Below are positions 6,418 to 41,477 of a stretch of DNA of 64,000 bases, piece after piece. The stretch is from a bacterium (lineage in GTDB: Bacteria; UBA8248). The translations under genes and the position numbers were made by a program. Position 1 is the first letter of the stretch. Each line of letters starts with the position of its first letter. Under the pieces are notes generated by a model, which saw nothing but the letters and a program-made list of their open reading frames with translations, did not search any database and was not told the origin of the DNA. The DNA is taken from positions 2,618,775 to 2,682,774 of the forward strand of contig OZ251456.1 in NCBI GenBank assembly GCA_965242545.1, written 5' to 3'.

Positions 6418-8511
6418 ATGAAAATTAGAGCGATTGAAATTACAAATTTTCGAGGGATTGAACAGGCTAAGATGAGCAACATCGGAGATATGGTAGTAAT
6501 CGCAGGGCCAAACGGGTCAGGAAAGTCGTGCATCCTAGACGCTATCAGGTTGGTCAAATCGACATACGGGGGCTATCAGATTAACGAATGGGACTTATGG
6601 ATGGGGGAATTCCAGATCGATAGGAGGTCGGGACCTTGGGAACTAAAAAAACTATTGCGGCAACCCACAAGGCAAGCAGAGATCAAGGCAGGGATCGAAA
6701 TATCTACGCGAGAACGTGAATATCTAAGAGAAAAAAGCGAAGAGCTGATGGAGGAAGCTGCGTTCGGAAGACTGTTTCCCGGACAACAAACGGAAGAGTG
6801 GCGAAATATCAAACAGGAAGGAAGAGTAGCGAGCTTGCCACAGCAAACACGCTCAGCACTGAGCACCATAAAGGAAAATTTGAAAAATCAGTTGAATAGT
6901 GAATTAGCGAATCTAACACAGGAGGCTCATGTCGCAATTTTACCAACAGGAGAGATGACTAGGCAAACAGGAAGTATAACCTTGGAGACAATATGGCGAA
7001 TTTATGAACCAGGGAGGGTAGGAGTAATCGACTATCACGGCTCACACAGAAATTATGCCCGGGAAAACGTGGCGGGAATCAATCTAAGCCTGAAAAGCCA
7101 TGAAGAACAACAAAAACAACACACATTATACAATTACGGAAATAAATACATGAATATCAAAACGGAAATGGCAACAGAGTTCGTCCAAGACATGTTGCGG
7201 AGAGAAGGGGGGCAAACAAACGAGCGGATAACGAGAAGTTTAGAAAACACACTAAAAGAGCTCTTCAAAACATTCTTTCCTGGCAAGGAATTCGAGGGAG
7301 CCAAAGCAGATGAACACGGGAACATTGCGTTTCCGGTAATAATCGGCGAGTCAAGACATGACGTCAATGAACTCTCTTCGGGAGAAAAGGAAATTTTGTA
7401 CGGGTATTTACGATTGAGAAGATCGGCCAAGAGAGATTCAATCATCTTGTTAGACGAGCCGGAATTGCACTTGAATCCGAAACTAATCCAAGGACTGCCC
7501 CAATTCTATGAACGGCACTTGGTGTCTGAACAAGAGAATCAGCTGTGGCTCATAACGCATTCGGACGCCCTGCTTCGAGAAGCACTCACGACATCCAAGG
7601 CAACCGTATTGCACATGCAAGAAGCGAAAGAAGGAGTAGCAACAGCAAATCAACTGAAACGGGTTGAAGAAAACAAAGACGAAGAACACGCGGTTATGGA
7701 GCTTGTCGGGGACATTGCCGGCTATAGACCAGAAGGAAAAGTAATTATTTTTGAAGGAAAGAACGCGGGCTTCGACGTCCGAATGACAAGCAGGTTATTC
7801 CCAGAATACGAACGGAAGATGAATTTTATCGCGGGAGGCCACAGGGCAGGGGTAGAGCGCTTGCACAAATGCCTGGAGACACAGGATGAAGAAACAGGGA
7901 TCGAAATCTATTCGATCGTTGACCGGGATAAGCAAGAAATGCGTAGGAGTGGCGGAAGGAGATATTCATGGGATGTGTACCATATAGAAAATTACCTCCT
8001 AGAGCCAACATATATTTTTGATGTCGTGAAAGGCATCACACTGGGCTCTCCCACATTTCAGGCGGCACCCGATATAGAAGAAGAACTACGGAAAATTGCA
8101 AAAAGACAAGTGAAAAAATTGGTAAAAGAATATCTAAACGAACACGTCCATCGGATACTAGTAAAAGAAATCGTCTTGAATGCGGAAAACGAAGATACGC
8201 TTAGCGAAGACCTGCTGAAAAAAGCAGAGATATCCGCAAAGAATCTGGCGGAAACGATCAAAAACAATCTGGCAAGTGATCAAATCGAACGAAGGCGTAT
8301 GGAGTACGAAAACGAACTAAAAGAGGCTTTGGAAACCGATGAGTGGAAGAAGAAATTTAGGGGACGGGAGATATTAAGGGAGTTTGTTGGGTTACACTGC
8401 CGAGGATTATCTTATGAGCGACTAAGGGATATGATCGTGAACCAAATGCAACAGCGAGGACATCAACCGAGCGGGATGAGAAATATCCTGCGAAAGATAG
8501 AACAAGACTAA
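6418..8511 (+). CDS. ABC-type ATPase fused to a TOPRIM-like domain (OLD/PARIS-like defence protein)
   Basis: Walker A GPNGSGKS, signature LSSGEKE, Walker B ILLDEPE, ITHS; C-terminal VIIFEG...IVDRD...IENYLL; low GC. Confidence 0.75.
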   Translation: MKIRAIEITNFRGIEQAKMSNIGDMVVIAGPNGSGKSCILDAIRLVKSTYGGYQINEWDLWMGEFQIDRRSGPWELKKLLRQPTRQAEIKAGIEISTREREYLREKSEELMEEAAFGRLFPGQQTEEWRNIKQEGRVASLPQQTRSALSTIKENLKNQLNSELANLTQEAHVAILPTGEMTRQTGSITLETIWRIYEPGRVGVIDYHGSHRNYARENVAGINLSLKSHEEQQKQHTLYNYGNKYMNIKTEMATEFVQDMLRREGGQTNERITRSLENTLKELFKTFFPGKEFEGAKADEHGNIAFPVIIGESRHDVNELSSGEKEILYGYLRLRRSAKRDSIILLDEPELHLNPKLIQGLPQFYERHLVSEQENQLWLITHSDALLREALTTSKATVLHMQEAKEGVATANQLKRVEENKDEEHAVMELVGDIAGYRPEGKVIIFEGKNAGFDVRMTSRLFPEYERKMNFIAGGHRAGVERLHKCLETQDEETGIEIYSIVDRDKQEMRRSGGRRYSWDVYHIENYLLEPTYIFDVVKGITLGSPTFQAAPDIEEELRKIAKRQVKKLVKEYLNEHVHRILVKEIVLNAENEDTLSEDLLKKAEISAKNLAETIKNNLASDQIERRRMEYENELKEALETDEWKKKFRGREILREFVGLHCRGLSYERLRDMIVNQMQQRGHQPSGMRNILRKIEQD

Positions 8512-8530
8512 CAATATACTTCGAGAAATT

Positions 8531-9772
8531 ATGAACTTGACCATTCAGGCCTCCATACCAAATAAACCAAACTGGAAACCAAAGACGATTTGGACTGGCG
8601 ACAACCTCCCGATCATGCGGGGGATGAACAGCGAGTCCGTTGACCTGATCTATCTGGATCCCCCGTTCAATTCAAATGCCAACTACGCGGCCCCCGTGGG
8701 AAGTGAGGCGGCAGGGGCGGAGTTCAGGGATACTTGGCGTCTTCGGGATATTGACGTGGAATGGATCAATCTCATCGAAGAAAAATATCCGCGAGTCTAT
8801 CGGGTTATCATGGCGGCAATGACGGATAGCGACAAATCTTATCTCACCTACATGGCGTCCAGGCTGTTGGAGATGCGCAGGGTATTGAATATGCGGGGGA
8901 GCATTTACCTACACTGCGATCCTACTATGAGCCATTCCTTGAAGTTGCTGCTGGACGCTATTTTCGAGAAAGGAAATTTTCGGAATGAGATTGTTTGGAG
9001 TTATCGCCGCTGGACAGCCTCACAAAAAAAACTGCCTAGATTACATGACATTATCTTGTGTTATGGCGAGAAAAATGCCGTATTCAACCCAGTACTCATT
9101 CCAAATAGCAATCCAAACCCTTCACAATACGTGAGTGCCAAAGACGATTCGGGAAAAACGATTGTCAAGCGAGATTCGGATGGCAAGCCAATAAAACGGA
9201 AAGTAAGTAAGACGCTGACTGTGGGAGATGTTTGGGACATTCCTATAATCAGCCCTAACGGAAAAGAACGTCTCGGATACCCCACTCAAAAACCTATCGC
9301 GCTTCTAAACCGGATCATAGAGGCATCTTCAAACGAAGGCGCTGTTGTCTTTGATCCGTTTTGTGGATGCGCAACGACCCTGGCCGCCGCAGATAAACTG
9401 AACCGAAATTGGATTGGTATTGACATATCCCCGAAGGCCGTAGAACTCATCATCAGGAGAATTAAAGATCAGCAAGGTCTCTTTAGGGATATCAACCATA
9501 GGGATGACATCCCCCAGAGGACTGATCTCGGCAAACTTCCCAAATATAATTCCTCCGAAAACAAGAATCGGCTATACGGAGATCAGCATGGCAACTGCGC
9601 GGGTTGCGGCACGCATTTTGAGGCGCATCACCTTGAGGTCGATCACATTATATCGAGGAAAAGGGGCGGGACGGATCACATAGAGAATCTGCAACTGCTT
9701 TGTGGACATTGCAACAAGGTCAAGGGCGACAGGGGAATGGATTATTTGAAAGTGAAGTTGCAACTGAAATAG
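8531..9772 (+). CDS. Beta-class amino (N4/N6) DNA methyltransferase with C-terminal HNH endonuclease domain
   Basis: IYLDPPF, YPTQKP, FDPFCGCATT; CAGC...LEVDHI...NLQLLCGHCNKVKG. Confidence 0.88.
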   Translation: MNLTIQASIPNKPNWKPKTIWTGDNLPIMRGMNSESVDLIYLDPPFNSNANYAAPVGSEAAGAEFRDTWRLRDIDVEWINLIEEKYPRVYRVIMAAMTDSDKSYLTYMASRLLEMRRVLNMRGSIYLHCDPTMSHSLKLLLDAIFEKGNFRNEIVWSYRRWTASQKKLPRLHDIILCYGEKNAVFNPVLIPNSNPNPSQYVSAKDDSGKTIVKRDSDGKPIKRKVSKTLTVGDVWDIPIISPNGKERLGYPTQKPIALLNRIIEASSNEGAVVFDPFCGCATTLAAADKLNRNWIGIDISPKAVELIIRRIKDQQGLFRDINHRDDIPQRTDLGKLPKYNSSENKNRLYGDQHGNCAGCGTHFEAHHLEVDHIISRKRGGTDHIENLQLLCGHCNKVKGDRGMDYLKVKLQLK

Positions 9773-9822
9773 TCCACAAATCCTTGATCTCATTATAGCC
9801 CATTAAAAATCGTATCAAACCA

Positions 9823-9864
9823 TGCTATCATCCTCCCGGAATCATCCCCCTTGCAGGACGCGCG
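9823..9864 (+). repeat. Copy 1 of the tRNA-Ser(TGA) promoter/leader
   Basis: TGCTATCATCCTCCCGGAATCATCCCCCTTGCAGGACGCGCG closely matches 19281-19322 and 15633-15674. Confidence 0.8.
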
Positions 9865-10775
9865 TAGTCCCGCTCGGCCTTCGCCTTCTCCGCGAGAGAC
9901 GCGCGCGCGGCGAGCGCCCCGTTCACCGCCGCCTGCCAGGCGTCGTGCTCGAAGAGGGCGACGGGCAGCTTGATCATCTCCGCGTCCTTGAGCTCCTGCG
10001 CGCTCACGCTGTGGAGGATGTTCGACCGGGGCCGGGGCGTCGCCGTGAACTCCACGATGGCGCAGGGGTTCACCCGCCTCTGCGTCTCGCGGGTGAGGCC
10101 GGTGACGGCGTTGTGCGCCTCGTCCACGATCATGAGCGGGCGGCGCAGATGCAGGAAGTTGGCGAAGGAGAACTTGACGCCGCCGTCCTCCACCCGCTCC
10201 AGCCCCGGCGGGAAGGAGGAGAGGGCGGAGAAGTGCGCCTCCATGTCCTCGTGGTGGGCGTAGACCTTGCGGCCCTCGGTGTTCGTGACCCGAAGCGTCT
10301 GGATGGTGCCGACCACCACGCAGCACCTGTCCCGCGCGTCGCCCGGGCGCAGATGCCCGAAGTCCGCGATGTCGAACACGCGCGCCCCGCCCCCGAACGC
10401 CTCATCGAGCGCCCGCCGGTAGGGGTGCCACGGCTTCTTGAGGGCGTCCGCCGTCTGGCGGCGGATGACGTTCGTGGGCGCGAGCCAGAGGACGAGGGGG
10501 CAATCCTCCTCCATCCAGGCATCGCGGGCGACGGAGACGGCGTGAGCCCCCAGAATCGTCTTGCCGCCGCCCGTGGGCAGGCGCAGGCAGACGTAGGGAA
10601 CGCCCGGCAGTTCCGCGAGCGGCTCATAGCTTCCGGCGTAGCCGCCGAGCCGGGCGGCGCGCTCCGGCTCCTTCGTGATCGCCTCGTAGGCGGCCTTCGG
10701 CCCGGCGACGCGCGCTTCCTCCAGAAAACGGCGCAGCGTCTCCAGCGTCTCTATCTGATAGCCCTTGAGCATCAT
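9828..10775 (-). pseudogene. res: Type III restriction (Res) helicase subunit, C-terminally truncated
   Basis: CLRLPTGGGKT, IVDEAH, FTATP; only 315 aa; reading frame runs into the tRNA-promoter copy at ~9864. Confidence 0.8.
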
Positions 10776-10828
10776 CGGGCCGAAACCCCCAAAAGCGTCA
10801 GGCGCGCCGCGCGCGAAGGCGGCGAAGG

Positions 10829-12100
10829 CTAGCCGGCGTCCTCAATCCGCGCCGACCTGTAAATGATTTCGTCATCGAGCAGGTTCGTTGAAAGTCCGTG
10901 CAGAACGCTGAAGGGCCTCATCAGGGGATTGATGAAGCGATACCTGTAGCGTCTGGGCGCTCCCGTTTTTTCGAGAACCGACCCCCGCTTCTCCGAACAG
11001 AAATCGTTCAGATGTCTGGCGAAAACGGGAATATAGCATCTTCTGCCGAGAATTTCCGAAAGAGGCCCGGAAACGGATGACGCGGAGAAATACCCGAGCG
11101 GATCCGTTTTCGTCAGCGCGCACGCGGTCAGGACTTCCCAGTAGATGTTTCTTTGGGGGCTGGAGACGGCCGTCGTATGCGCGCTCAGCAGGCTGTACGA
11201 CTTTCGCACCGCGCTTTCAATCGCGTTGCGAACGTCCTCCGCCGTCGCCCGCGTTCGCCCGTTCTCCAGCGCTTCGTACGCGGAGTATTGACCAAGCAGA
11301 TGCGCGAAATGCGGGAGTCCCTGGGACAGCCGCGAGATATATTCCTTCGCCTCGCGCTTCATTTCCATGCCGCACCTGCCCATCCCGGTATCCAGAATGG
11401 AAACCAGCTCATCGTCGCTCATTCTCGGCATGGGCACCTGCACGAGGCACCGCTCGATGGATTTATGCTCCGAAATCAGCTGATCCACGGAATCGCCCAC
11501 TCCGGTAAGAATGATGGTCGTTCCCGTGGCGTGGTCGGACAGGTTTTTTATCGTATCGGCCAGCAGGGCGGAGGTGTTCTCGGTTTCGCCTTTCAATCTG
11601 TCCAGTTCATCGATGATGATGATCGTGTCCGGGCCGATCGCGTCCAGCCCGTGCCTGACGTCATCCGGCTGCCGCGGGCGGGCGCCTTCCAGGGATATTT
11701 CCGATCGCTCCGCGTTCGACGCGAACCCCGGCTTCAGTTTGGTCAAATTGAATTTCAACTCGCGAAAAATCTTGCCCCACAGGGAAGCGAAGTCATCCTG
11801 ACGATCGCAGTTGATGGTGCACGAGCTGAGAAACTGAAGATCCGTGGAGGATAGAAGCTCGGCGAGGACGCGAACGAGCGACGTCTTCCCTACGCCGGGT
11901 TCGCCAAAGACAATCGCGTGCTGACCCTTCTGAAAAACCGCCTTGATAATGTCATTCGTCTGCTCCCCCCTGCCGGCGAACAGGTCCAGGCTGTCTATCG
12001 GCGTTCCGGGCTGAAAGGCGAGTCCTATTTTGGCCCGATAGAAAACTTCTTCCGACTTGTCCACCTTCTGCTTTCCTTTCGCTGTATATTGGCGCGTCAA
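10829..12100 (-). CDS. AAA+ ATPase (AAA_16/Orc1-Cdc6-like) with probable winged-helix C-terminus
   Basis: LFAGR, GEPGVGKTS, IIIIDELDRL. Confidence 0.8.
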   Translation of the reverse strand: MTRQYTAKGKQKVDKSEEVFYRAKIGLAFQPGTPIDSLDLFAGRGEQTNDIIKAVFQKGQHAIVFGEPGVGKTSLVRVLAELLSSTDLQFLSSCTINCDRQDDFASLWGKIFRELKFNLTKLKPGFASNAERSEISLEGARPRQPDDVRHGLDAIGPDTIIIIDELDRLKGETENTSALLADTIKNLSDHATGTTIILTGVGDSVDQLISEHKSIERCLVQVPMPRMSDDELVSILDTGMGRCGMEMKREAKEYISRLSQGLPHFAHLLGQYSAYEALENGRTRATAEDVRNAIESAVRKSYSLLSAHTTAVSSPQRNIYWEVLTACALTKTDPLGYFSASSVSGPLSEILGRRCYIPVFARHLNDFCSEKRGSVLEKTGAPRRYRYRFINPLMRPFSVLHGLSTNLLDDEIIYRSARIEDAG

Positions 12101-12446
12101 CCCTCATAATATAAGACCAAAAGCTAACAATATAAAGGCGAACCCTGTTAAATTAGCGCCTTTCGCCGCCTGAACGCTGTAATAAGCTCCATATTAACGC
12201 GCCTCCTTGCCGAAGCCGACCCCCGCGAAAGAAACCCTCCTCCCCCGGAAAATGCCGCTTTCCGCTTTCCTTTCGCTGTTCATTGGCGCGTCAACCCTCA
12301 TAATATAAGACCAAAAGCTAACAATATAAAGGCGAACCCTGTTAAATTAGCGCCTTTCGCCGCCTGAACGCTGTAATAAGCTCCATATTAACGCGCCTCC
12401 TTGCCGAAGCCGACCCCCGCGAAGAGAAACCCTCCTCCCCGGAAAA
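12070..12446. repeat. Near-perfect tandem duplication (period ~194 bp) upstream of the AAA ATPase
   Basis: 12070-12252 repeats as 12264-12446 (GCTTTCCTTTCGCTGT...CCCCGGAAAA). Confidence 0.9.
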
Positions 12447-12489
12447 CGGCGCGGCGTCTCCGGCGTCTCGATCCGGCGACCCTCGAGCG

Positions 12490-14053
12490 TCATCGGGCGT
12501 CCTCCCGGCGCCCCCGCGCCTTCATCTCGTAGGGCGTCTGCCTGAATACGACGCCCTCCCGCTTGAGCGTCGCCGTCCGCAGGCGCGAGCCTTCCCCATA
12601 GACGACAAGGGGACAGCCCGGCGCGATCGCCGGACGCGCCCGCGCCGCCTCCGCGCGAATCGCGCCCAGGGTCGCGCGCGTGAGCACGTTGCCCCCGTCG
12701 GGACGCTTGTCCCCCAGAACCCCGTTGTAGAGCAGGGCGTAGGCGCGCCCCTCGTGGACGCCGAGAAAGGGGGAATCCCCGCCGCCGCTCCGGGGGCGGC
12801 CCGTCTCGGCGAACCAGACGTGGGCGGCGAGGACGGAAAAGCGGATATCCGGGCGGATGCGCCCCTCCGCGTCGAAGGCGGGCGGCCCCAGGCGATGGAA
12901 GCGGAAGCCCCCGCCGCCCCGCCAGCCGACGGCTTTGGAGATTCCCCCCCGCTCGCCCTCGATGACCTTCTCCATGCGGGGGACGCAGTGCGTCACGGCG
13001 TGTTCGCCCATCTCGACCCCTATCCACCGCCGCCCCATCTTGTGGGCGACCGCCGCCGTCGTGCCGGAGCCGAGGAAGGAGTCGAGAACGAGGTCGCCGG
13101 GGTCGGTGGCGATTTGGAGAACGCGCTGGATCAGCCGTTCGGGCTTGGGGGTATCGAAAACATCTGATTCGTTAAAAACGCGAGATTCTCGTTTCGCTTC
13201 CTGATTATCGCCAACCTCTTTTCGATACCATATCGTCTTGGAAACCGCGCCCTGCTTCACTTCGGAGAGAAATCTTTTTATCGAAGGCACGTTGCTGCCT
13301 TGCTTGCCAAACCATATTCGGTTGTCATCCACCATTTCCTGAAAGCCGCTCCTTTGAAACAACCCAACAACGACCAGCTGGCGGGTTGACGACACGGCCT
13401 GACGGCGTGGTGATGGGATAATCATAAACTGCGGAGTACGTTCTGACGTCCAAGCCGCTTACCTTCCATAAACCCCTTGGATCGTCATCCGGATTCTTGT
13501 AGCGGGCGTTCATTTCTTCCGTTCGCGGCAGGAGATTCGGTCTCCAAGTCTCTTTGGTTTTCGCAAAACAAATAACGTGATCGTGGGTGTCGGAAAGCCA
13601 TTTCGCATCATTCTGCGGCGCGTATTTCTTCTCCCAGATAACATTCGCCACGAAATTCCTGCGCCCAAACACCTCGTCCATGATGGTTTTCAGATAATGC
13701 GCCTCATTGTCGTCAATGGACGCCCATATCGAGCCGTCCTCCGCCAGCAGGTCGCGCAGGAGTTCGAGGCGCGGCCACATCATGGCGAGCCACCGGGCGT
13801 GTTCGAGGCTGTCGTCGTAGTGGGCGAAGGCGGAGCGCGTGTTGTAGGGCGGGTCGATATAGACGCACTTCACCCGCCCGGCGTAGAAGGGGAGGAGGGC
13901 TTTCAGGGCTTCGAGGTTGTCGCCCCGGATGAGCATGTTCGGGGCTTCGACGTCCCCGGCGGAGAGCGCCGGCGCCTCCTCCAGCAGACGCCAGGGCGCG
14001 CGCGACGCCGCGGCGATGTCCTCGGCGCGGGTGAGCCACGTCAAAGTGGGCAT
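12490..14053 (-). pseudogene. mod: Type III methyltransferase (Mod) split by a 1-nt frameshift near 13345
   Basis: N-half MPTLTW...YIDPPYNT; C-half TPKPE, VLDSFLGSGTT; removing one base joins VSKER to FQEMVDDNRIWFG. Confidence 0.85.
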
Positions 14054-14125
14054 CAGTCGGCGTCCTTCTTCGGGACTTCCGCCATCGCCGCCTCGTATTC
14101 GGCTATCCACCCCTCGGCTTGTTCT
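14012..14125. repeat. Direct repeat (pentapeptide gene 3' end plus mod 5' end), also at 17711-17824
   Basis: Near-identical GGCGATGTCCTCGGC...GGCTTGTTC in both places. Confidence 0.88.
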
Positions 14126-15525
14126 TTGGAGTAGGCTCCGGTGACCGCGCCGCTGTTTCGGGGCGGTTCATGGCTCGCCGGTTGGTCGATGTGGGATGCG
14201 AGTTTTGTCCGCAAACCCACCGTTTCCCAATCAGACAAGCCGACGACGAGATGTTCCACGCTTTTCCAAGTCAATCCGCCCGCGAAGACCACGTCGGAGA
14301 AGTCGCTTTTTTCGTCGATTCGCGCCCTGATACGTTTCGCGAAACTGCTTGGGCCCTCCTGCCTACTGCTGACCACTCCTTGCAACTGCGCATCGTTAAG
14401 ATACGCACTTTGGAAATCCGCTCCCGCAAGAAACGCGCCTTGCAAATGCGCCCCAACAAGATACGCCCCTTGCAATCGCGCCCCGACAAGATCCGCCCCC
14501 TGCAACTGCGTCTCCCGAAGTGACGCTTTCTGCAAACCCGACCCGCAAAGATCCGCCCCTTGCAAACGCGCCGCCTCAAGATTCGCCTCTTGCAACTGCG
14601 CACTCAAAAGCTCCGCTCCCTGCAACTGCGCCCTCCGCAGCTCCGCTCCTTGCAACTGCGCACCAAAAAGATCCGCCCCTTGCAATTCCGCTTCCGAAAG
14701 ATCCGCGCCTTGCAGACGCGCCTCCTTAAGATTCGCACCTTGCAGGTACACCCTCCGAAGATCCGCCCCTTGAAAATGCGCGTAATCAAGCAGTGCCCCT
14801 TGAAAATGCGCCCCGCTCAGGACGGCCTTTCGCAAACGCGCCTTCTCAAGATTGGCCCCGTTCAGCCAGCTTCCTTGCAAGTTGATATGAAGTCCATCGA
14901 AAACCTCATGCTCCTGGACAAAAAGCAGGGTGAGCAGACTCTGGATTTCCTCGGAGGGCCTCGACTTGTGCTTTTCCCGATACTCTTTCTCGCCCGTCGT
15001 CCGGCGGACGTGGGCGCAGAGAATGTCGAGCGCCGTTTGCCGCAACTCTTTGTTGTCCTGCGCCAGATGAAAGAGCTCGTAAGCCCCGCCCAACCGCACT
15101 GAGACTGCCCCATGGCCCAGATGCTCGATGGCGTTTTTCAGCCGCTCCTGCCGCAGACCCTTCTCGGCGTTCCGGTTCGCCTCCGCCTGCCGCTCCGTGG
15201 CCCCAGCCTGGGCGCGCGCCGCGTCCGCCTGCGCCCGCGCCGATTCCTCCATCGCCACGGCGCGCCGGTGGGAGTTGGCGGCCTGGATGGCGAGGATGAC
15301 GCCGCCCATGGCGACGCCGAGAGACTTCAGCGCCGTGAATTTCCGCTCATCCCCGTTCGCGATCCCGGAAAGGCGGTAAAACCATTCCGGCTCCCGGATC
15401 ACGACGATCAGAAAAAGCGCCAGCAGGATGACCAGCAGGGCGGCGAGAACGGCGACAATCGGATTTCCCCGCGCCCGGTCCCATATCCGCGCAAGGATAT
15501 TCTTCGGCGCGTCCGGCGGCGTCAT
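14053..15525 (-). CDS. Membrane-anchored pentapeptide-repeat protein A
   Basis: Two N-terminal hydrophobic helices; many A(D/E/N)LxxAxLQG repeats; stop codon overlaps mod ATG. Confidence 0.9.
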   Translation of the reverse strand: MTPPDAPKNILARIWDRARGNPIVAVLAALLVILLALFLIVVIREPEWFYRLSGIANGDERKFTALKSLGVAMGGVILAIQAANSHRRAVAMEESARAQADAARAQAGATERQAEANRNAEKGLRQERLKNAIEHLGHGAVSVRLGGAYELFHLAQDNKELRQTALDILCAHVRRTTGEKEYREKHKSRPSEEIQSLLTLLFVQEHEVFDGLHINLQGSWLNGANLEKARLRKAVLSGAHFQGALLDYAHFQGADLRRVYLQGANLKEARLQGADLSEAELQGADLFGAQLQGAELRRAQLQGAELLSAQLQEANLEAARLQGADLCGSGLQKASLRETQLQGADLVGARLQGAYLVGAHLQGAFLAGADFQSAYLNDAQLQGVVSSRQEGPSSFAKRIRARIDEKSDFSDVVFAGGLTWKSVEHLVVGLSDWETVGLRTKLASHIDQPASHEPPRNSGAVTGAYSKEQAEGWIAEYEAAMAEVPKKDAD

Positions 15526-33050: not shown

Positions 33051-34585
33051 CCTGAATCCTCCTTTGAATGGGGCGAATCGGCCCGCGTCCGCGGCGCCAG
33101 CGTCGAAGCCCAGGGCCGCCTCCAAATGCTCAGCGCCAGCATCAGCGCGGTCATGGCGATGAAAAAAGCCGCGATGGGACGGGTGAGGAAAATGGAATAA
33201 TCACCCCGTGAAATGATGAGCGCCTGCTGCAGGGCCTCCTCCGCCCGGGGCGCGAGGATGAACGCGATGACGAGCGGGGCCAGGGGAAACTTCAGCTTCC
33301 GGAGTCCGTAGCCGAACAGGCCCGCGACGAGCGCGAGAACGAGGTCCCCCAGGTTGCTGTGATAGACGTACGCCCCCACGAGGCAGGAGAGAATGATGCC
33401 CGGCACCAGGATCGACTGACGGATGGTGACGATTTTGGCGAACATGCCCGTGAGCAGCCAGCCCTGGACCAGCATGATGGGGTTTCCCAGAAGGAGCAGC
33501 GTGAAGATGGCGTACATGGTGGGGGCGTGCTCCTGAAAAAGACTCGGCCCCGGCCGCAGCCCCTGGGCGATGAACGCGCCCATGAGAATCGCCGCGCTGG
33601 GGTCGCCCGGGATTCCAAACGTGAGGGTGGGGATGAGGTCCGCTCCCGCAACCGCGCTGTTGGCCGACTCCGACGCCGCGACGCCCTCGTAGCTGCCGCG
33701 GCCGAACTCCTCCGGCCGCTTCGACGCCCGCTTCGCCGCCGCGTAGCTGACGAAGGTGGCGATGGCCGCTCCCGTCCCCGGAATCGCGCCGACGAAGGTG
33801 CCTATCATGGATGATCGCACGATGGTTCGGGCGGAGCGCCATACCTCGACGATCCTGAGTTTTCTGCCCCCCCGCAGGCGCAGGGCTTCGGGCGGGCGCG
33901 CCAGATCGACGGCCCGCTTCTCCGCCTGGATGAACACCTCGCTGACGGCGAAAAGCCCGATGAGCAGGGGCACCACCCCCACTCCCTCGGCCAGGCCGGG
34001 AAGCCCGAACGTGAAGCGCTCGCCTCCCGAGATGATGTCCGTGCCCACCATTCCGAGCTGGAGTCCAATCAGGGCGGAGAGCACTCCCTTCACCACGGAG
34101 GCTCCCGTCACGCTGGAGATGATGGCCATCCCCATCAGCAGAAGTCCGAAAAACTCGGCCGGCCCGAACAGGAGCGCCACCGCGGCCAAAGGAAGCGCCG
34201 CCAGGATAAGCACGAGATCACTGAAAGTATCGCCGATGGTGGAGGAATACAGCGCCATCTGAATGGCGCTCCTGGCCTCGCCCTTCTGCGCGAGCGGAAA
34301 CCCGTCCATGCAGGTCGCGGCGGCGGGCGCCGTCCCCGGCGTGTTGACCAGGATGGCGGGGATGGAGCCCCCGAAGAGCGTCCCCTTGTGAATGCCCAGC
34401 AGAAAGGGGATGCCCAGCACCGGCGGCATGAAAAAAGAGAAGGGAACCAGAATCGCCGTCGCCATGACGCTGGTGAGGCCCGGAATGGCGCCCACCGTGA
34501 TGCCCACGAAGACGCCCACCGCGATCATGGCCAGCCCCTGCCACGTGAGCGCCATGGCGACCCCCTGGATGATTTGCTCGAACAT
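33047..34585 (-). CDS. tctA: Tripartite tricarboxylate transporter permease TctA
   Basis: GAIPG, NTPGT, DGFPLA, ESANSA, PTLTFGIPGD. Confidence 0.93.
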   Translation of the reverse strand: MFEQIIQGVAMALTWQGLAMIAVGVFVGITVGAIPGLTSVMATAILVPFSFFMPPVLGIPFLLGIHKGTLFGGSIPAILVNTPGTAPAAATCMDGFPLAQKGEARSAIQMALYSSTIGDTFSDLVLILAALPLAAVALLFGPAEFFGLLLMGMAIISSVTGASVVKGVLSALIGLQLGMVGTDIISGGERFTFGLPGLAEGVGVVPLLIGLFAVSEVFIQAEKRAVDLARPPEALRLRGGRKLRIVEVWRSARTIVRSSMIGTFVGAIPGTGAAIATFVSYAAAKRASKRPEEFGRGSYEGVAASESANSAVAGADLIPTLTFGIPGDPSAAILMGAFIAQGLRPGPSLFQEHAPTMYAIFTLLLLGNPIMLVQGWLLTGMFAKIVTIRQSILVPGIILSCLVGAYVYHSNLGDLVLALVAGLFGYGLRKLKFPLAPLVIAFILAPRAEEALQQALIISRGDYSIFLTRPIAAFFIAMTALMLALSIWRRPWASTLAPRTRADSPHSKEDSG

Positions 34586-34594
34586 GCCGCGCCC

Positions 34595-35077
34595 TTAATG
34601 AAAGAGGCTGCCCTGGGGCAGCGCCAGCTTGAAGGCGAACCAGAAGAAGTAATTCACCCCGATGGGGAACAGAACGGCCATGGGCGCGACGTATCGCCAG
34701 TCCCGCGTTCCCATGAGCGTCATCAGGACGGCGAGAAAAACGGGAGAGCTCAGCAGGAAGCCGAAATACGCCAAAGACTCGACGTAGGCGTAGCAGATGA
34801 CGAAGACCACGAAGACCTGGATGAGCGCCCTTCCGCTCGCGAGCGCCCGCGCGGGCCCTTCACTTCTTCTGAGCGCCCCGAACAGAAGCATGGCGCTCAC
34901 CGCCGCGAAGACGACGACGGAGGCGGTGGGGAAGAAGGTCGGCAGGAAGACCGCGTTAGAGACGTCTTCCGGCGGAATGGAATACTGAATCTGCGTCGGG
35001 ATGATATGGAAAAAGCCGACGGCGCTGTAGAGCAGAAGAACGATTGCCGCGCAGACATCGGCTTTTCTCACGTCCAC
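34595..35077 (-). CDS. tctB: Tripartite tricarboxylate transporter TctB
   Basis: Several TM helices, FKLALPQG C-terminus, upstream of tctA. Confidence 0.82.
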   Translation of the reverse strand: MDVRKADVCAAIVLLLYSAVGFFHIIPTQIQYSIPPEDVSNAVFLPTFFPTASVVVFAAVSAMLLFGALRRSEGPARALASGRALIQVFVVFVICYAYVESLAYFGFLLSSPVFLAVLMTLMGTRDWRYVAPMAVLFPIGVNYFFWFAFKLALPQGSLFH

Positions 35078-35413
35078 TCCCCTCCGTGGATGCGGAATGC
35101 GCGCCGTCCTCGCTCATGCCGCCGACGAGGAAGCTGCCCAATTCCGGGACGCGCGGCCATTTTTCGCTTCATCTTTTTTCGTTGTAAAGCAGAGTCTAAC
35201 AGGAATCGCTCCGCGTGTCACCCCGCAATCGGAAGCGGATTTTCCGCAAGGCGGGGCGCGCCGCCAACGCCGCTTCACGCGGGCGCCCCGAGCGCTTGGC
35301 GCTTCCACTCGTCAGGGAGGCGCCCCGATGCCCGCGTGAAAAATTTCGTCGGCTATGGGAAGATTCCGTGGAGAAAGCAACGGAAAATCGATACCGGGAA
35401 GGGGGGGCAATCA

Positions 35414-36151
35414 ATGGACCGGGGAATCTGGGCGGTATGGTATGACCTTCCCGAGGAGGGAGAAGCCGAATACCTCTCCTGGCTCCACGAAGTCCATATC
35501 CCCGAAGCGCTCGGACGGCCGGGCTACCTGTGGGCGGCGCACGTCAGGAACGTCGTAACCCGGGAGCGCGAGGAGCGCATTCGGGGAATCGTCCATCATA
35601 CCGACGACGCGGGCGTCCCCGCGGGCGTCCGGTATCTGATGCTCTTCGGCGCCCTGGGGCCGGCCGTTTTTCTCGATCCGTCTCCCGAGCAGATGGAGGA
35701 GAAGATGGCCTCCGAGGAGCGCGAAATGCTCGGACGCCGAAGGGGCGCGCGCTCGTGCATTTTCATGGAGCACAGCCGGATCGACGGGCCCGAGGCGAAA
35801 ACCCGGGCGCCGGGCCTCACGCCGGGCCCCGGCATCCAGTTCGGAACCTTCAACGTCAACGCCGTCGAAAACGAGGACGAGCTGGGGTGCTGGTACGCCC
35901 AGGAGCGGATGCCCCGACTGAGGAGGATGAAGGGATGCGTCGGGGCGCGCAATCTGGTCTCGGTCTCCGGCTGGGCCAAGCACGGCGTCCTCTACGAATG
36001 GGTCTCCCTGGAATCCCTCCAGGAAAACTTCATCACGGAGAAGATACCCCGCTCGCGCCGGGCGGTGAGCACCCTGGTCCACGCCCCCAGCTCTCCCAGC
36101 GTGGGGGAGCGCGTCTGGCCGCCGGTGCGAGGCGCGCGGCTCTCGGGCTGA
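35414..36151 (+). CDS. Hypothetical protein (tandem EthD/DUF4286-like domains)
   Basis: Repeated pattern WLHEVHIPE..RPG and WYAQERMP..MKG. Confidence 0.7.
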   Translation: MDRGIWAVWYDLPEEGEAEYLSWLHEVHIPEALGRPGYLWAAHVRNVVTREREERIRGIVHHTDDAGVPAGVRYLMLFGALGPAVFLDPSPEQMEEKMASEEREMLGRRRGARSCIFMEHSRIDGPEAKTRAPGLTPGPGIQFGTFNVNAVENEDELGCWYAQERMPRLRRMKGCVGARNLVSVSGWAKHGVLYEWVSLESLQENFITEKIPRSRRAVSTLVHAPSSPSVGERVWPPVRGARLSG

Positions 36152-36255
36152 ACCCGCTTCTCAAAAGGCGGGCTTCGCTTAGGAGAGCGCAGCGCGCGCC
36201 TCGGGGACAGAGGCCGCCCAAAGACCATTCGGGAAACTTTCAGGTCGGAACGTCG

Positions 36256-36365
36256 AAGTCCTCCCCGTCAATACCCGAGCTTCGAGAATCCCTCGAAGAA
36301 GCGCGCCAGGAACTTCTCGGCGCGGAGAACGCCCGCCACCCGCGCGTATTCGTTCGCCGCGCGCT
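36256..36365. repeat. Left copy of a ~110-bp direct repeat (3' end of the M20 peptidase gene) flanking the Cas9 module
   Basis: Matches 40038-40148 with one C indel and one substitution. Confidence 0.92.
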
Positions 36366-36464
36366 GTGGTTTGCGGCCACTTCTCGACTTGCTACAATTC
36401 CTTCACCCATATTCGCGTGGCCTTATGGGCTGTGGTTTGCGGCCACTTCTCGACTTGCTACAAT
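36363..36464 (+). CRISPR. Minimal type II-C CRISPR array: 2 identical 36-bp repeats, one 30-bp spacer
   Basis: Repeat GCTGTGGTTTGCGGCCACTTCTCGACTTGCTACAAT at 36363-36398 and 36429-36464; spacer TCCTTCACCCATATTCGCGTGGCCTTATGG; adjacent to cas9; anti-repeat present. Confidence 0.92.
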
Positions 36465-36608
36465 GGGCGCGCTGTAAGGATTTGAAAAAATGTTGCTTCC
36501 GCCCGCTTACCGGCTGAAAACTGGTCGGCGAGCGGGCGGAGGCGGCAACCCCTCCTGATTTTTCGATTCCCCCGGTTTTGAAGTTTTTTGGATTATCGCT
36601 TGACCGGC

Positions 36609-39600
36609 TCAATCTTTCGACGGGCGGATGCGGCCGATAGGGTCCACAGACAGCTTCTTCGGCCGTCTTTTCATAAACCCCACAAAGCGAGGTACAAAAT
36701 CCTTTCGCTTGCCGCTCATCCCCAGTTCGCGCGCTTCTTTCAGGGACGTCGGGCGCGCGTCATTGACGCGCGCGAGGGTCGGACGGCCTGCCGATGCGAT
36801 ACCATGCACAACCCACAATCCCTTCTCCTCGCCCTCTAGAAGCTCAATTATATCACCCAGCGACAGAGACATGATGAGCTTCGCGCCGTCAGTCCGTTTG
36901 CGCCGCACGACATCTTCCCTTCTCGACAAACGCCGCGCCGCATCGAACAAGCTGACGACTTCAAAATCGACCCCGCCACCGGGCAGGCAATAGATAGCCA
37001 TGTGGTGATTTTCATGCTTTGCGGCGTAGCCCGTCCCGACGCGAGCCACCAGACTCCGTTGCCGCTTCTTCCACAGGCGCGCCTTGCGGATTTCGGGGCC
37101 CTTTCGTCCCCGCTTCGGATAAGGGGGAAACGCTTTCTTTGGCTCTCCACCATGCTTCTCGACCCAATCCCCGACGATTTCCCGCACACCATCGTCCCGA
37201 ATTTCCTCCAATTCGCTCTTGCTCAGTTCCTCGACTTTCTTGCGCGTAACGAAATAGCGATAAATCGTCCCGTCCGGGCCCGTCTCTTCTTTTTTCGCGT
37301 CGCCCCAAACCATATCCCTGTGCAACGGGCCGGACACTTTCTTGCGGACGCGATGGGACACTACGATCCCGGCGACGGCCTTTTCCGCCTCAACGCGAAT
37401 CGTCGCCCAAGGCGGAGCAAGTTGCGGTTTCCGGGCGCCGGGATTTTCCCTGGCCTGCCAGTAGCTGGACAGCTTATGCGTCATGCCGGGATGCGCGCAG
37501 GCGACCACCAGCGCGTCGATAGCGTGGTGGCGATGGTCGTCGCGCGTCTTCTCTCCGTCTTCGGCGAGAATGTTGTTGAGGCGCCACCATCGGCGCAACT
37601 GCCCCGTAACGCGGCCGGATACGGCCTGCACTGTAACAGGCGCTTCCGGCCCACGGTCCGGCCATAACTGCTTCAAAAAGGCGACGGCCTCCCGCGCGGC
37701 GTATCCCGTGTCGTTGAGCTGACGATCGGCGAAGCCTTCAGGAATCCGCCGCGCCAGAAAGCGCTTGATCTTGCCCGGCGACATGCCGATTCCGCCTCTG
37801 GTGGCCTTCATGTCTTCCAGACGCTTCTCGAGCTTCGCCCACTCTTCCTCATCTCCTGAGAGATATTCAAACGGGATGCGATTGCCTTTTTCGAGATTCA
37901 CGTCCCGGCGGCAAAGGGTCTTGTTCCTGAAAGCGTTGTCAAAGGATTTGGAGCGCGGCCAGATATGCTCGACCTGAAAATCATTGCTGTGAAACAGAGC
38001 GGCGAAGCCGATTGGGTCTCCCGTATAAGGGCAGAAATGCCCGCATTCCTCCCAGAGCATCCACTTTTCGACGTCATCGCGCGAAGGATTGGCGATGTCG
38101 CGCTTTTCGAGCTCTTCCTTTGCTTTTTTCCGACGTCTTGCCTGTCGGGCGATCCCTTGCCGCCTTTCCTCGCGCTGGCGCTTCGACATGCCGACGTCGC
38201 GCGCCAGTTCGACGCGAATCAGGTCCGGCTTGCCGAACACTCGGATGAGGTTGTTGGCGACCTTGCGGAGCTCGTTGCGCGCTCGCGCGACCGTGGGGTT
38301 GCGCAGTTTGGCGACGCGCTTCCTCTCTTCCGGATCCGTCGGACTCGGCAAGAGATCACGGGCCTCGCCCGTCGGTCGCTCCATTCCCGGAAAAGTTTCC
38401 TGCCGCCAAGCTTCCCACTCGGGGCCGTTCACGAGGGCGCCGAACCGCTCGCCGGCTTCGAGATGGGGCAGAAACGCCTGCAGAGCCTCGAACGAATAGG
38501 GCTCCCACCCCGCGGATAGTTTGAGGCCCTTCAGCTTCTCGGCCTGCTCTTCGGTTATGCCGAAATCATCAATGAAGCTTCCCGCGACCCTCTCCCGATT
38601 CGCCTTGCGTTTTTTCGCCGACAGGATAACCACGCGCTGCGCGTCGGTTCCTCCGTGATCCGTCCGCCGCTTGCCGACTTCCCCATAGTCCGCCCGCCAA
38701 AGACGCTCGGCAACGGCGTCCCGTATCTCCTGCCTGTGGGGGTGCTTTACCCATTCGCGGCCGAAAATCTCCGTCAGTTTCGCTTCGAGCGGGTTGCCGA
38801 TGAGCTTTTTCTCGCCCCCTACCTCCAGATTGAACTTCAGGCGCCTCTCCGCTCCCAACCTGCCGCGATCCCGGTATAGAGGCTTGAGCGCGCCGCGAAC
38901 TCCGCCCCAGGTCATGGAAGACTGGGCTTGCAGTCGATCAAGAATCGCCCGACGCTCCTCCTTATCGAGAAGCCCCCTTTTTCCGCGGACGAACTCAAGG
39001 TTGTTGAGTTTCTCCAACATGCGCCTCTGCTGCGAAAGCCATGACCCTTTGGGGCATAGCGGCGCATCGGGAGCGAAGCGGCATTCTCCGAGCGTATTCT
39101 TGCGCCAGAACGTGGGCCGCTGGGAGAAAATCGCCTCGTGGATAGATTTCCTCAAACTTTCAGTCCGAAGCGCGGCAAGATGCTCTTTCTGTCCACTCCA
39201 AATCTTGTTGAACTCATCCTCGACGTGCTTGCGCGTCGCGTGCGCGCCCCGTTTCCGCTCGCGAGGCCCGCGTTTCGAGAGCCACGCCCCAAGCGAAATA
39301 TCTTCGTTCTCCAGTATCTCTATCGTTGACTCCCGGTCGGTCTTGGCTTTCTTCTCATCGGCAATCATTTCCTTATCTTTTCCGTCGGCCGTTTCAGCGT
39401 CGTCCGAAACTTCGTCGATATCACGTCCCTTGAAATGCCGACGCTTGGCTAGATGGTAGATCGCCCTCCCGAACTCATGCGGCGAGAGAGCTTCGCCCTT
39501 GAAAGCCCGTTTTCTGAACTTGTAGGGGTCGCATTTCATCACCTCATGCCATTCGGTCGATCCATAGGATGGAAGCAAGCCGGCTTCAGACAGCAACTCA

Positions 39601-39824
39601 CCGATCGAACGCCGTCGTTCGCGGCGGCGGCGCAACTGGCGACGGCGAAGACGCGCATTTCGCCGATCCTGATTGAGCGGCGCGCCGCTTTGCGGATCGC
39701 GCGCCTCCGGGAAGATGCGGACGCCCAGACGTTTGATTTCGCCCGTCGCCTCATCCGGATCGTGGTCGATCACGGCGAATCCTACCGAGGTCGTGCCGAT
39801 GTCGAAACCGAAAATAAGCGCCAA
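36609..39824 (-). CDS. cas9: Type II-C CRISPR endonuclease Cas9 (~1070 aa)
   Basis: RuvC-I FGFDIGTTSVG, Arg-rich bridge helix, RuvC-II RVELARD, HNH VEHIWPRS..NKTL..NLEKGN, RuvC-III HHAID; probable TTG start at 39824 after GGAG. Confidence 0.97.
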   Translation of the reverse strand: MALIFGFDIGTTSVGFAVIDHDPDEATGEIKRLGVRIFPEARDPQSGAPLNQDRRNARLRRRQLRRRRERRRSIGELLSEAGLLPSYGSTEWHEVMKCDPYKFRKRAFKGEALSPHEFGRAIYHLAKRRHFKGRDIDEVSDDAETADGKDKEMIADEKKAKTDRESTIEILENEDISLGAWLSKRGPRERKRGAHATRKHVEDEFNKIWSGQKEHLAALRTESLRKSIHEAIFSQRPTFWRKNTLGECRFAPDAPLCPKGSWLSQQRRMLEKLNNLEFVRGKRGLLDKEERRAILDRLQAQSSMTWGGVRGALKPLYRDRGRLGAERRLKFNLEVGGEKKLIGNPLEAKLTEIFGREWVKHPHRQEIRDAVAERLWRADYGEVGKRRTDHGGTDAQRVVILSAKKRKANRERVAGSFIDDFGITEEQAEKLKGLKLSAGWEPYSFEALQAFLPHLEAGERFGALVNGPEWEAWRQETFPGMERPTGEARDLLPSPTDPEERKRVAKLRNPTVARARNELRKVANNLIRVFGKPDLIRVELARDVGMSKRQREERRQGIARQARRRKKAKEELEKRDIANPSRDDVEKWMLWEECGHFCPYTGDPIGFAALFHSNDFQVEHIWPRSKSFDNAFRNKTLCRRDVNLEKGNRIPFEYLSGDEEEWAKLEKRLEDMKATRGGIGMSPGKIKRFLARRIPEGFADRQLNDTGYAAREAVAFLKQLWPDRGPEAPVTVQAVSGRVTGQLRRWWRLNNILAEDGEKTRDDHRHHAIDALVVACAHPGMTHKLSSYWQARENPGARKPQLAPPWATIRVEAEKAVAGIVVSHRVRKKVSGPLHRDMVWGDAKKEETGPDGTIYRYFVTRKKVEELSKSELEEIRDDGVREIVGDWVEKHGGEPKKAFPPYPKRGRKGPEIRKARLWKKRQRSLVARVGTGYAAKHENHHMAIYCLPGGGVDFEVVSLFDAARRLSRREDVVRRKRTDGAKLIMSLSLGDIIELLEGEEKGLWVVHGIASAGRPTLARVNDARPTSLKEARELGMSGKRKDFVPRFVGFMKRRPKKLSVDPIGRIRPSKD

Positions 39825-39871
39825 CGATAATTCTCCATTGCATTCACGAACGTGAAGTAGTAGCATGGGGA

Positions 39872-39992
39872 GAATAGCAAGTCGAGAAGTGGTCGATTGC
39901 TTATCACAGGCAAATTGACTTCTTCGTCCGGGCTCGGCATCCCAAGGTCATCGCCGTGCAAAAGCCCTCGTCACAGGACGAGGGCTTTTGCA
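39872..39992 (+). ncRNA. tracrRNA
   Basis: Anti-repeat TAGCAAGTCGAGAAGTGGTCG..ATCACAG (39875-39909) complementary to the repeat with a bulge, then hairpins; 5' end approximate. Confidence 0.88.
39957..39992 (+). terminator. Intrinsic terminator of tracrRNA (possibly bidirectional)
   Basis: TGCAAAAGCCCTCGTC-ACAG-GACGAGGGCTTTTGCA perfect inverted repeat. Confidence 0.82.
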
Positions 39993-40050
39993 TTGGAAGA
40001 GAACAAAATGGTTAAGAACACTGCCTCATCCGGCCCAAAGTCCTCCCCCG

Positions 40051-41436
40051 TCAATACCCGAGCTTCGAGAATCCCTCGAAGAAGCGCGCCAGGAACTTCT
40101 CGGCGCGGAGAACGCCCGCCACCCGCGCGTATTCGTTCGCCGCGTGCTTCCGCGCGGCGTGGCAGGGGAGGCCGCCGATCCAGGGAACGCCCAGCTCCTC
40201 CGTCCACAGCGCCACCGGCATCCCCGCCGGGTGGACGGGCCAGACCTCCGGCGACGCGCCCATGGCGGCGTGCGCCTCGAGGACGCATTCGACCAGGGGG
40301 TGATCCGGCGGGGTTCCGCCGCCCGCGTAGCGGTTGTTCACGACGAACTCCACGTCGCCGTAGCCGCCCTCGGCCAGGATGGCGCGGACGTTCGCGATCC
40401 GCTCGTCGGGATCCTCCCCCGGCTGAAAGCGCATGTTCACCACCGCCTGCGCCTCGTGGGGAATGCTCACCTTGACGGATTTTCCCTCGCCGACGAACCC
40501 CGCCTGAAGCCCGGTGAGGGTGAACTCCGGCTTGAACAGGTGCGCGCGGACGGCGGCGCGGAAATCCTCCTGGCGAAACCGTTCGACCCCGAGGCCGCGC
40601 CTCATCGCTTCGGGGTCCATGCGCTCTGCGAGCGCGCGGCAGAGCGCCTCCTGCGCGTCCGTCGGCGTCCACCCCTCGCCGCCTTCGTAAATCTCCCAGA
40701 GCCTCTTCTGCAGATGGGCGACCGCCTCGACGAGGCGCTCGGCGGGGTTGCCTATCCAGTTGCTGTTGAGCGCGTGAATCTCGTTTCCCATGGGCCCGCC
40801 CCACTCCCCGGAGCGGCAGAACAGCCTGCCCATGAGGTTCCCCTTGAGACCCAGCGGGACGATGGGCGTCCCGTCGGCGTGCGCCATCGGGCAGAGCCAC
40901 AAGGCCGCGTTCGCCCTTCGCATCCGCTCCCTGTAGCGCGGGAAGAAATCCTTGATGCCGCCGCTTCCCAGCTCCGACGCCTCGTGGACGAACAGGAGGT
41001 TGATCGGCAGTCTCTCGCCGGCGGCGCGCGCGGCGAACACCGCGTTCATCAGGCAGGCGATGCCGGTCTTCATGTCCTCCGCCCCCCGGCCCACGACGCA
41101 GCGCCCCAGGCCCTCCAGCTCCCGGATTCGGGGGTCGAAGGGGGGATTCATCCAGTTCGGCTCCTCCGCCGGCGTCACGTCGTAGAGCCCGTGGCAGAGA
41201 AGCGTCCGCTCCGCGCCCTCGTCGATGAGGCCGAACACGACGGGAAACTCCGCCGTCTCCACCACCTCCGCCCGGCCGCCGGCTTCGACGATCTCCCCGG
41301 CCAGCATCCGCGCCATCTCCTCGTTGCCGAGGTTCAGGGCGGAGACGCTCGGCTGGCGGATGTATTTCAGAAGGCGCTCGAGGTGGGAGGACTCGAAATC
41401 CTCCTCGATTCGCGCGACGACCCGCTCCACGTCCAT
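40051..41436 (-). CDS. M20/M25/M40 family metallopeptidase/deacylase
   Basis: QPSVS, GLYDVTP, GRGAEDMK, HAANEY. Confidence 0.88.
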   Translation of the reverse strand: MDVERVVARIEEDFESSHLERLLKYIRQPSVSALNLGNEEMARMLAGEIVEAGGRAEVVETAEFPVVFGLIDEGAERTLLCHGLYDVTPAEEPNWMNPPFDPRIRELEGLGRCVVGRGAEDMKTGIACLMNAVFAARAAGERLPINLLFVHEASELGSGGIKDFFPRYRERMRRANAALWLCPMAHADGTPIVPLGLKGNLMGRLFCRSGEWGGPMGNEIHALNSNWIGNPAERLVEAVAHLQKRLWEIYEGGEGWTPTDAQEALCRALAERMDPEAMRRGLGVERFRQEDFRAAVRAHLFKPEFTLTGLQAGFVGEGKSVKVSIPHEAQAVVNMRFQPGEDPDERIANVRAILAEGGYGDVEFVVNNRYAGGGTPPDHPLVECVLEAHAAMGASPEVWPVHPAGMPVALWTEELGVPWIGGLPCHAARKHAANEYARVAGVLRAEKFLARFFEGFSKLGY

Positions 41437-41477
41437 CGGCAAGCCTCCTCCTCCCCCGGCGCGCGGCTCCCGGGGCT

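Follow-up and report, generated by a model that had tools for sequence, protein, structure and literature searches.

Can a cas9 gene that is accompanied by a trans-activating CRISPR RNA (tracrRNA) and a single spacer, with no cas1 or cas2, still serve as a CRISPR system, and how did it come to lie between two copies of the end of a peptidase gene? These questions are raised by a 3.67-kb unit in a bacterial genome (GTDB lineage UBA8248; NCBI GenBank assembly GCA_965242545.1, contig OZ251456.1). The stretch of DNA analysed, called the window here, covers 64,000 nt (positions 2,618,775 to 2,682,774 of the forward strand), and all coordinates below refer to it. The genome that carries the unit (G000) is a single contig of 3,087,465 bases and is 99.3% complete. 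An initial annotation of the window had described a one-spacer array, a Cas9 with RuvC and HNH motifs, a tracrRNA and a flanking repeat, and both its coordinates and its description were correct. The overall explanation that we consider reasonably probable is that the unit is a truncated type II-C locus, present as a strain-variable insertion in the 3' end of an M20 peptidase gene and used for interference with a single guide.

Results

An incomplete type II-C locus

A six-frame hidden Markov model search of the whole genome returned no Cas1 (PF01867) and no Cas2 (PF09827), with control genomes responding as expected. The absence of cas1 and cas2, which the initial annotation had reported for the interval between the repeats, therefore extends to the entire genome. 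No other CRISPR-like array was found genome-wide in a crude k-mer scan. The 3.67-kb unit has no room for another gene such as csn2 or cas4, for which no family-specific search was made. Because neither PF01867 nor PF09827 had a match in the complete genome, the locus is an incomplete type II-C system: Cas9, tracrRNA and array are present and cas1 and cas2 are absent, the combination by which Cas9-only or incomplete II-C loci are recognized.

The array consists of two identical 36-nt repeats (36363-36398 and 36429-36464, plus strand) around one 30-nt spacer (36399-36428, plus strand). This is the smallest CRISPR array possible, and the repeat has only these two copies in the genome. The cas9 gene lies on the minus strand as an ATG open reading frame of 1085 aa (36609-39866) with the Pfam domains RuvC_III and HNH_4. 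Its true start is probably the TTG codon at 39824, which stands behind a GGAG and would give 1071 aa, as in the closest homologue, that of a congener (G012). All catalytic motifs are present (RuvC-I DIG, RuvC-II ELAR, HNH EHIWP and RuvC-III HHAIDA), and the best matches among solved structures in the PDB were II-C Cas9s, at E about 1e-61. The ratio of nonsynonymous to synonymous substitution rates (dN/dS) against G012 was 0.21 over 1043 aligned codons.

The tracrRNA is encoded divergently from cas9 on the plus strand, at approximately 39873-39998. Its anti-repeat was detected at 39875-39895, and pairing with the entire repeat extends it to ~39912; a 17-bp terminator hairpin (~39956-39992) and a T run follow. 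The repeat:tracrRNA duplex had a predicted energy of -48.7 kcal/mol, compared with -16.9 +/- 3.4 kcal/mol for 500 shuffles, and the terminator fold had a z-score of -6.2. The start of the tracrRNA was placed provisionally, from a promoter-like site read by eye (TTGCAT-N17-TAGCAT, ~39838-39865) that a consensus promoter scan did not report. At one of two changed repeat positions between G000 and G012, the change is matched in the tracrRNA (repeat CTTC with tracrRNA GAAG against CCCC with GGAG). Each of the 18 family loci tested has an inverted anti-repeat directly upstream of cas9, with its position and orientation conserved. Rfam matched no tracrRNA family and gave only three chance-level matches.

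Between the array and cas9 lies a hairpin region (36495-36565) that is homologous to the cas9-array spacer of G012. It contains an inverted repeat (36495-36512 and 36526-36543) and a terminator-like site (36538-36555) followed by a T run, and it is likely a two-way terminator; terminator-like sites as a class were no commoner than in shuffled sequence (5 found, 5.1 expected). The GC content of the cassette is 59%, compared with 65.4% for the genome. Judged from sequence features, the predicted parts of the cassette look functional.

Relatives of the Cas9

A scan of 185,579 species genomes, one genome per species, yielded 24 loci with a Cas9 at 55-71% identity. Their hosts carry at least three phyla-level labels in the records, namely Alpha- and Gammaproteobacteria, Paracoccaceae, Thalassobaculaceae, Candidatus Poriferihabitaceae and Synechococcus, and the spread of the clade across these metagenome-assembled genomes (MAGs), with the runs that contain the window labelled sponge metagenome, hints at an exchange of one II-C lineage within this habitat. 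In 19 of the 24 loci, cas1 directly follows cas9 and is itself followed by cas2. It lies about 4.5 kb further on in two loci and, together with cas2, upstream in G012; in one locus it is not in the fetched flank, and one is cut by a contig end. The arrays hold 2 to about 101 repeats.

The closest Cas9 is that of G012, at 71% identity; the genome scan gave nothing above it, and a scan of metagenome contigs gave nothing above 64% identity. The order in G012 is IS256/Mutator-type transposase, cas1, cas2, tracrRNA, cas9, hairpin and about 22 repeats. The tracrRNA-cas9-hairpin-array layout is common to the two loci, with homologous non-coding parts and repeats that differ at 3 of 36 positions. Homology begins at the tracrRNA terminator, extends across cas9 and the hairpin and ends within the array; the G000 unit therefore corresponds to the tracrRNA-cas9-array part of such a locus. 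Unlike G000, G012 has cas1 and cas2 upstream of the tracrRNA, ~22 repeats and no M20-derived flanks, and its locus occupies another genomic site, beside the IS256-type transposase.

Because G012 carries cas1-cas2 and ~22 repeats, and because 19 of the 24 more distant loci have cas1 directly after cas9, the unit reads as a truncated II-C locus, not as a purpose-built module. The proposal in the initial annotation of a pre-programmed module is thus not borne out: cas1 and cas2 stand just beyond the tracrRNA in G012, and an allele described below (X5) suggests that the array was once longer.

Some features of these related loci were unusual. The main G012 locus (G012:C1:190000-209999, 7490-15292) has the uncommon order cas1-cas2-tracrRNA-cas9-array. 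A second, near-identical copy of cas9 and array starts at the first base of another contig (G012:C2:1-4511) and has one TAA inside cas9; this copy is a genuine duplication or else an overlap in the assembly. One alphaproteobacterial MAG (CBDBCV...) has three copies of the Cas9 clade on three contigs, each matching only query residues 8-895, and in two of these cas1 lies ~4.5 kb further downstream than usual. This pattern suggests a multi-copy locus with the same insertion inside cas9.

Borders of the unit

The unit is bracketed by a 113-nt direct repeat (36253-36365 and 40035-40148) and is inserted 98 nt inside the 3' end of a gene for an M20/M25/M40 peptidase. The duplication leaves the peptidase gene whole (40051-41442, minus strand; Pfam Peptidase_M20 and M20_dimer; 80-90% DNA identity in congeners). 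A repeat finder delimited a core of 103 nt at 99% identity (36263-36365 against 40046-40148); over 113 nt, the copies differ by one 1-nt indel (C4 against C5) and one mismatch (C at 36362, T at 40145). The right copy, DR-R, is the true 3' end of the M20 gene and completes the intact gene; it takes in the last ~31 codons with their stop and 16 nt of the spacer beyond. The left copy, DR-L, comprises the same 16 nt of intergenic spacer, ~31 codons and stop. It abuts the first CRISPR repeat, the first GCT being common to both, and keeps its native position relative to the left flanking gene (34388-36151, plus strand; 587 aa, no Pfam family), a conserved neighbour of the M20 gene in congeners. In the alignment, DR-L and the left flank are collinear with the congeners' empty sites. 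DR-L is therefore the original end of the gene, now displaced, and the M20 gene owes its present end to DR-R. The genome contained no additional copy of the 113-nt repeat or of the cassette.

At the left junction, M20-derived sequence runs to ...GCCGCG and is followed by a C at 36362 and then by the CRISPR repeat. The corresponding base is T in DR-R and in all five aligned congeners. This C may be the last base of a lost spacer, since the X5 allele also has a C directly before the repeat; a coincidence would have a chance of 1 in 4. On the right side, for the ~40 nt between the tracrRNA terminator and DR-R (39999-40034), no homologous sequence turned up in G012, in the other family loci or elsewhere in the genome. 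The last codons of cas2 were considered for this stretch and dropped, as the alignment with G012 showed no convincing homology there.

Alleles within the species

Twelve public runs from five studies hold the window or part of it and are labelled sponge metagenome. Four of them (X1, X5, X7 and X9) were compared, as contigs and not as reads. Three allelic states occur in this one species: repeat-flanked, locked in without the left repeat, and empty.

The duplication, which the initial annotation had read from a single sequence, is real and not an assembly artefact, as three of the runs show. In X1, probably the source of the assembly, the repeat unitig had a depth of 95.9, compared with 55.9-62.8 for the flanks, and the junction unitigs (36332-36392 and 36369-36458) had a depth of about 50. 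A contig from X9, which belongs to another study, is identical over 36054-36412 and has the same left junction. In X5, from a third study, one contig crosses the right junction (39493-40566, 9 differences), which is the same as in G000.

The left side of X5 differs. Its left-flank contig lacks DR-L: it leaves the G000 sequence at 36214, continues with 25 other letters and enters the repeat from 36362, again with a C directly before the repeat. The 25 letters matched nothing in the carrier genome at up to 3 mismatches and nothing in 78 retrieved loci. That they are part of a lost spacer is a guess.

In X7, from a fourth study, 36255 and 40038 are adjacent in a 1878-nt contig that lacks the 3782 nt between them and has a single copy of the repeat. 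An empty site of this kind, which the initial annotation had proposed to look for in related genomes, is thus found here in the same species. Its background is ~98.7% identical to G000 (24 differences in 1878 nt) at a depth of 9.9. The same run has cas9 contigs (36600-39958, depth 6.6-12.4) beside the empty-site contig, so that X7 contains either two strains or one strain with cas9 elsewhere. The empty allele fits repeat-mediated loss and an ancestral state alike. The X7 contigs leave 36302-36599 and 39959-40037 uncovered and those of X5 leave the spacer uncovered; no conclusion was drawn from these gaps.

Three further studies, in addition to that of X1, contain the cassette. The cas9 alleles of X5 and X7 share differences from G000 and diverge from it by ~1.7% (X5, 29 in 1648 nt; X7, 43 plus 8 gap letters in 2476 nt). 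The cassette must therefore have been in the species for a time sufficient to diverge to about the same extent as its flanks. Length changes in X7 cas9 are all in frame, with 9 nt lost and 3 nt gained (37278-37288 and 38859). One listed substitution (37858) would give a stop by itself, but it shares a codon with 37859, and both together make a sense codon.

The internal loop of the tracrRNA anti-repeat is also 5 letters longer in the X7 allele (39904). Together with the length changes in cas9, this is within-species variation at the RNA-protein interface.

The insertion site in congeners

Both flanking genes were found on one contig in 19 of the 22 congeners (members of the same genus) searched, and none of the 19 has cas9 between them. 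Together with the empty-site contig of X7, this supports the view in the initial annotation that the unit is a discrete, gained insertion. A full cas9-cas1-cas2 locus at the same site, which would have made the unit a simple deletion remnant, was not seen among the 22 congeners. The gap between the left gene and the M20 gene was 50-97 nt or a contiguous match in 11 congeners, 215 nt in one (G006, the closest species, with an M20 gene 90% identical) and 1.3-2.0 kb with other genes in seven.

The contents of these longer insertions are known for four congeners, G014, G021, G013 and G020 (G005, G007 and G022 were left out). G014 and G021 encode a DarT ADP-ribosyltransferase and, after it, a macro-domain protein between the left gene and the M20 gene (G014:C1:294000-298300, 977-2707; G021:C114:5105-5713). 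The two make up a toxin-antitoxin defence pair of the DarTG type, so that in this genus the site acts as a small hot spot for defence genes. G013 has a fumarylacetoacetate-hydrolase gene there (locus 1035-1967) and G020 the same hydrolase with a cyclase (locus 273-1934), all on the strand of the M20 gene; they probably share an operon with the peptidase gene and are absent from G000 and about half the genus. No flanking repeats were found around the insertions in G014, G013 and G007. In G006 (G006:C1:636000-642000, ~3345-3561), ~215 nt of unrelated sequence separate the left gene from the M20 stop, where most congeners have ~55 nt.

Predicted function and spacer target

The 3' end of the repeat reads TTGCTACAAT, which resembles what we take to be the extended -10 promoter embedded in the II-C repeats of Neisseria, and it is the predicted promoter for a single CRISPR RNA (crRNA). 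In the part of the source available, the II-C repeats of Neisseria and Campylobacter are described as carrying promoters that initiate crRNAs within spacers (PMC5965381). In G000, the promoter-like 3' end of repeat 1 would likewise start a transcript inside the spacer, and repeat 2 would pair with the tracrRNA as the handle of the single crRNA. With repeat 1 as promoter, the spacer as guide and repeat 2 as handle, the array would therefore be of the minimal working size. Guided by this spacer alone, Cas9 could cut a single foreign target, and the cassette could not acquire new spacers. Its most likely function, as far as the sequence allows a prediction, is to interfere with one foreign target through a fixed guide that cannot be updated.

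No target was detected for the spacer. The carrier genome had no second match at up to 3 mismatches, and none to seeds of 11-16 nt in its 3.09 Mb, even for the 11 repeat-proximal nt, for which 1.5 matches would be expected by chance; the best partial match was 18 of 24. The spacer was also not found in 41 other family genomes (24 nt, up to 3 mismatches), in IMG/VR (an exact 24-mer and two 20-mers) or in any of the retrieved loci. Phage records and plasmid records gave no target, with best matches at E >=2 in each.

Discussion

The borders suggest how the unit could have arrived. It was probably inserted without a dedicated integrase. In the simplest scenario, the left border would be an illegitimate join that links an array repeat to codon -32 of the M20 gene through a microhomology of at most 3-4 nt, and the right side would have been resolved by homologous recombination in M20, producing the duplication and keeping the gene whole. 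Such an outcome could result from homology-facilitated illegitimate recombination of incoming DNA, from a template switch during replication, or from RecA-mediated integration of a 3783-nt circle closed by the same join. Repeats of 113 nt are long enough for RecA-mediated precise loss, and recombination between the two copies would excise the unit precisely. The geometry thus permits loss as one unit, as the initial annotation proposed. The route of recombination, like the promoter in the repeat and the activity of the system, is what we infer from the arrangement of the parts.

Several points weigh against a truncated, integrase-free and still active locus. The three routes would leave the same end product. 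The X5 left junction depends on a single contig of low depth (7.1) that covers only 31 nt of the repeat side, with the threshold set at 90%, and joints of this kind can mislead. No collection searched, metagenome contigs being left out, contained a target for the spacer. Among 20 listed cas9 differences between G000 and X5/X7 (the list holds 40 of 139 allele differences), the amino acid is altered in 10 codons and kept in 8; this ratio indicates weaker constraint than the long-term value of 0.21 and is compatible with relaxation. Finally, a 113-nt repeat at a gene 3' end is the classic footprint of an integrase, which possibly acted in trans or has since been lost. In the last case, the repeats would be the left and right attachment sites (attL/attR) of a small mobile element at the M20 3' end, with its recombinase elsewhere or deleted, an origin that the initial annotation had suggested. 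The direct repeat that rebuilds the gene end, the intact gene, the precise empty site in the population and the other cargo at the same intergenic site in congeners (DarT with the macro-domain protein, in G014 and G021) would all suit such an element. Even so, we judge it very unlikely. No tyrosine recombinase/integrase reading frame lies within the unit (serine recombinases were not searched), and the only two PF00589 recombinases of the genome are both >0.97 Mb away. The left end is a CRISPR repeat to the nucleotide, without any element-specific end sequence, and the left junction in X5 differs, so that, on that one low-depth contig, the two junctions are not the same everywhere. The genome has no second copy of the repeat or unit, neither the 185,579 species genomes nor the metagenome contigs contained a closer copy of the unit, and the DarTG and hydrolase insertions of congeners have no flanking repeat.

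The cassette might also be inert, a decaying II-C leftover that gives no defence, persists because it is recent or neutral, and is heading for loss through its flanking repeats. The lack of cas1 and cas2, the one spacer without a detectable target, the empty allele, the array ends that differ between conspecific alleles and the 10:8 ratio, which suggests relaxed constraint, are all in keeping with decay, and this remains a serious contender although we regard it as unlikely. Against it, the 1085-codon frame is open with every catalytic motif present, the two repeats are identical, tracrRNA pairing is good and the terminators are intact. The cas9 alleles of X5 and X7 have also diverged by ~1.7% with in-frame length changes in X7 and with the potential stop at 37858 averted by 37859, and the cassette recurs in the three further studies. 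We give hardly any credence to a role as host-gene regulator, in which the single guide would direct Cas9 to a host sequence as in the scaRNA/Cas9 system of Francisella. By analogy, a fixed single guide without adaptation genes is how such a regulator would be expected to look, and the initial annotation had raised the idea; however, the spacer has no second genome match, whether at up to 3 mismatches or as an 11-nt seed, the nuclease motifs are intact, and the unit is absent from conspecific strains and from congeners. Interference by a truncated locus with one guide remains the reading we prefer.

A bolder version of this reading can be imagined, although we consider it quite doubtful. The unit could be a self-sufficient, integrase-free defence cassette that passes between sponge-associated strains of the species when DNA is taken up and recombines on the M20-derived arm, directs one fixed guide against one recurrent mobile element, and is shed and regained via the 113-nt repeats. 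If true, the hot spot that is occupied by DarTG in sister species would here contain a naturally occurring 'one-guide Cas9 gene cassette'.

Whatever its history, and with its function predicted, a complete natural unit for Cas9 interference could hardly be drawn smaller: a promoter-bearing repeat, a spacer, a handle repeat, cas9 and a tracrRNA in 3.7 kb. It offers a concrete case of CRISPR loci shrinking, moving without integrases and being lost, and adds one more example to the few described Cas9 systems lacking adaptation. It leaves knowledge of how Cas9 works unchanged.

The unit resembles the canonical II-C systems of Neisseria meningitidis, Campylobacter jejuni and Geobacillus in its Cas9 of ~1070-1085 aa, its 36-nt repeat and 30-nt spacer, its repeat-pairing tracrRNA and its array read opposite to cas9. 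As in Neisseria and Campylobacter, its repeat 3' end, under the motif presumed above, resembles the repeat-embedded promoters that the available part of the source describes (PMC5965381). Canonical II-C loci consist of cas9-cas1-cas2 with an array and a tracrRNA, whereas here cas1 and cas2 are absent genome-wide, there is one spacer, and the array stands directly after cas9. A literature search for orphan, solo or cas1-less Cas9 returned Campylobacter coli clade 3 and CampyICE1 and nothing closer; the flanking-duplication geometry was not searched specifically. In C. coli clade 3, a chromosomal cas9 without cas1/cas2 or other cas genes was reported, possibly unable to acquire spacers (PMC4607530). 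That Cas9 belongs to a different lineage and host, and the part of the source available describes neither a host-gene flanking duplication nor a presence/absence polymorphism. CampyICE1 carries cas9, a tracrRNA and short arrays (1-3 spacers; third array 1.0 +/- 0.6) without cas1/cas2, and the available part of the preprint interprets it as a fixed-repertoire weapon against competing plasmids (bioRxiv 10.1101/2021.06.01.446523). As far as that part goes, it shares with our unit a cas9, a tracrRNA and a very short array without cas1/cas2 on acquired DNA. It differs in that it is conjugative, measures 70 kb, encodes its own mobility functions and has three arrays with known targets on plasmids, whereas the present unit spans 3.7 kb with one array, no mobility gene and no target found. 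Cas9-only II-C loci are thus already known, and what is notable here is the minimal size, the duplication of a host gene end, the three allelic states in one species and an insertion site that holds DarTG in sister species.

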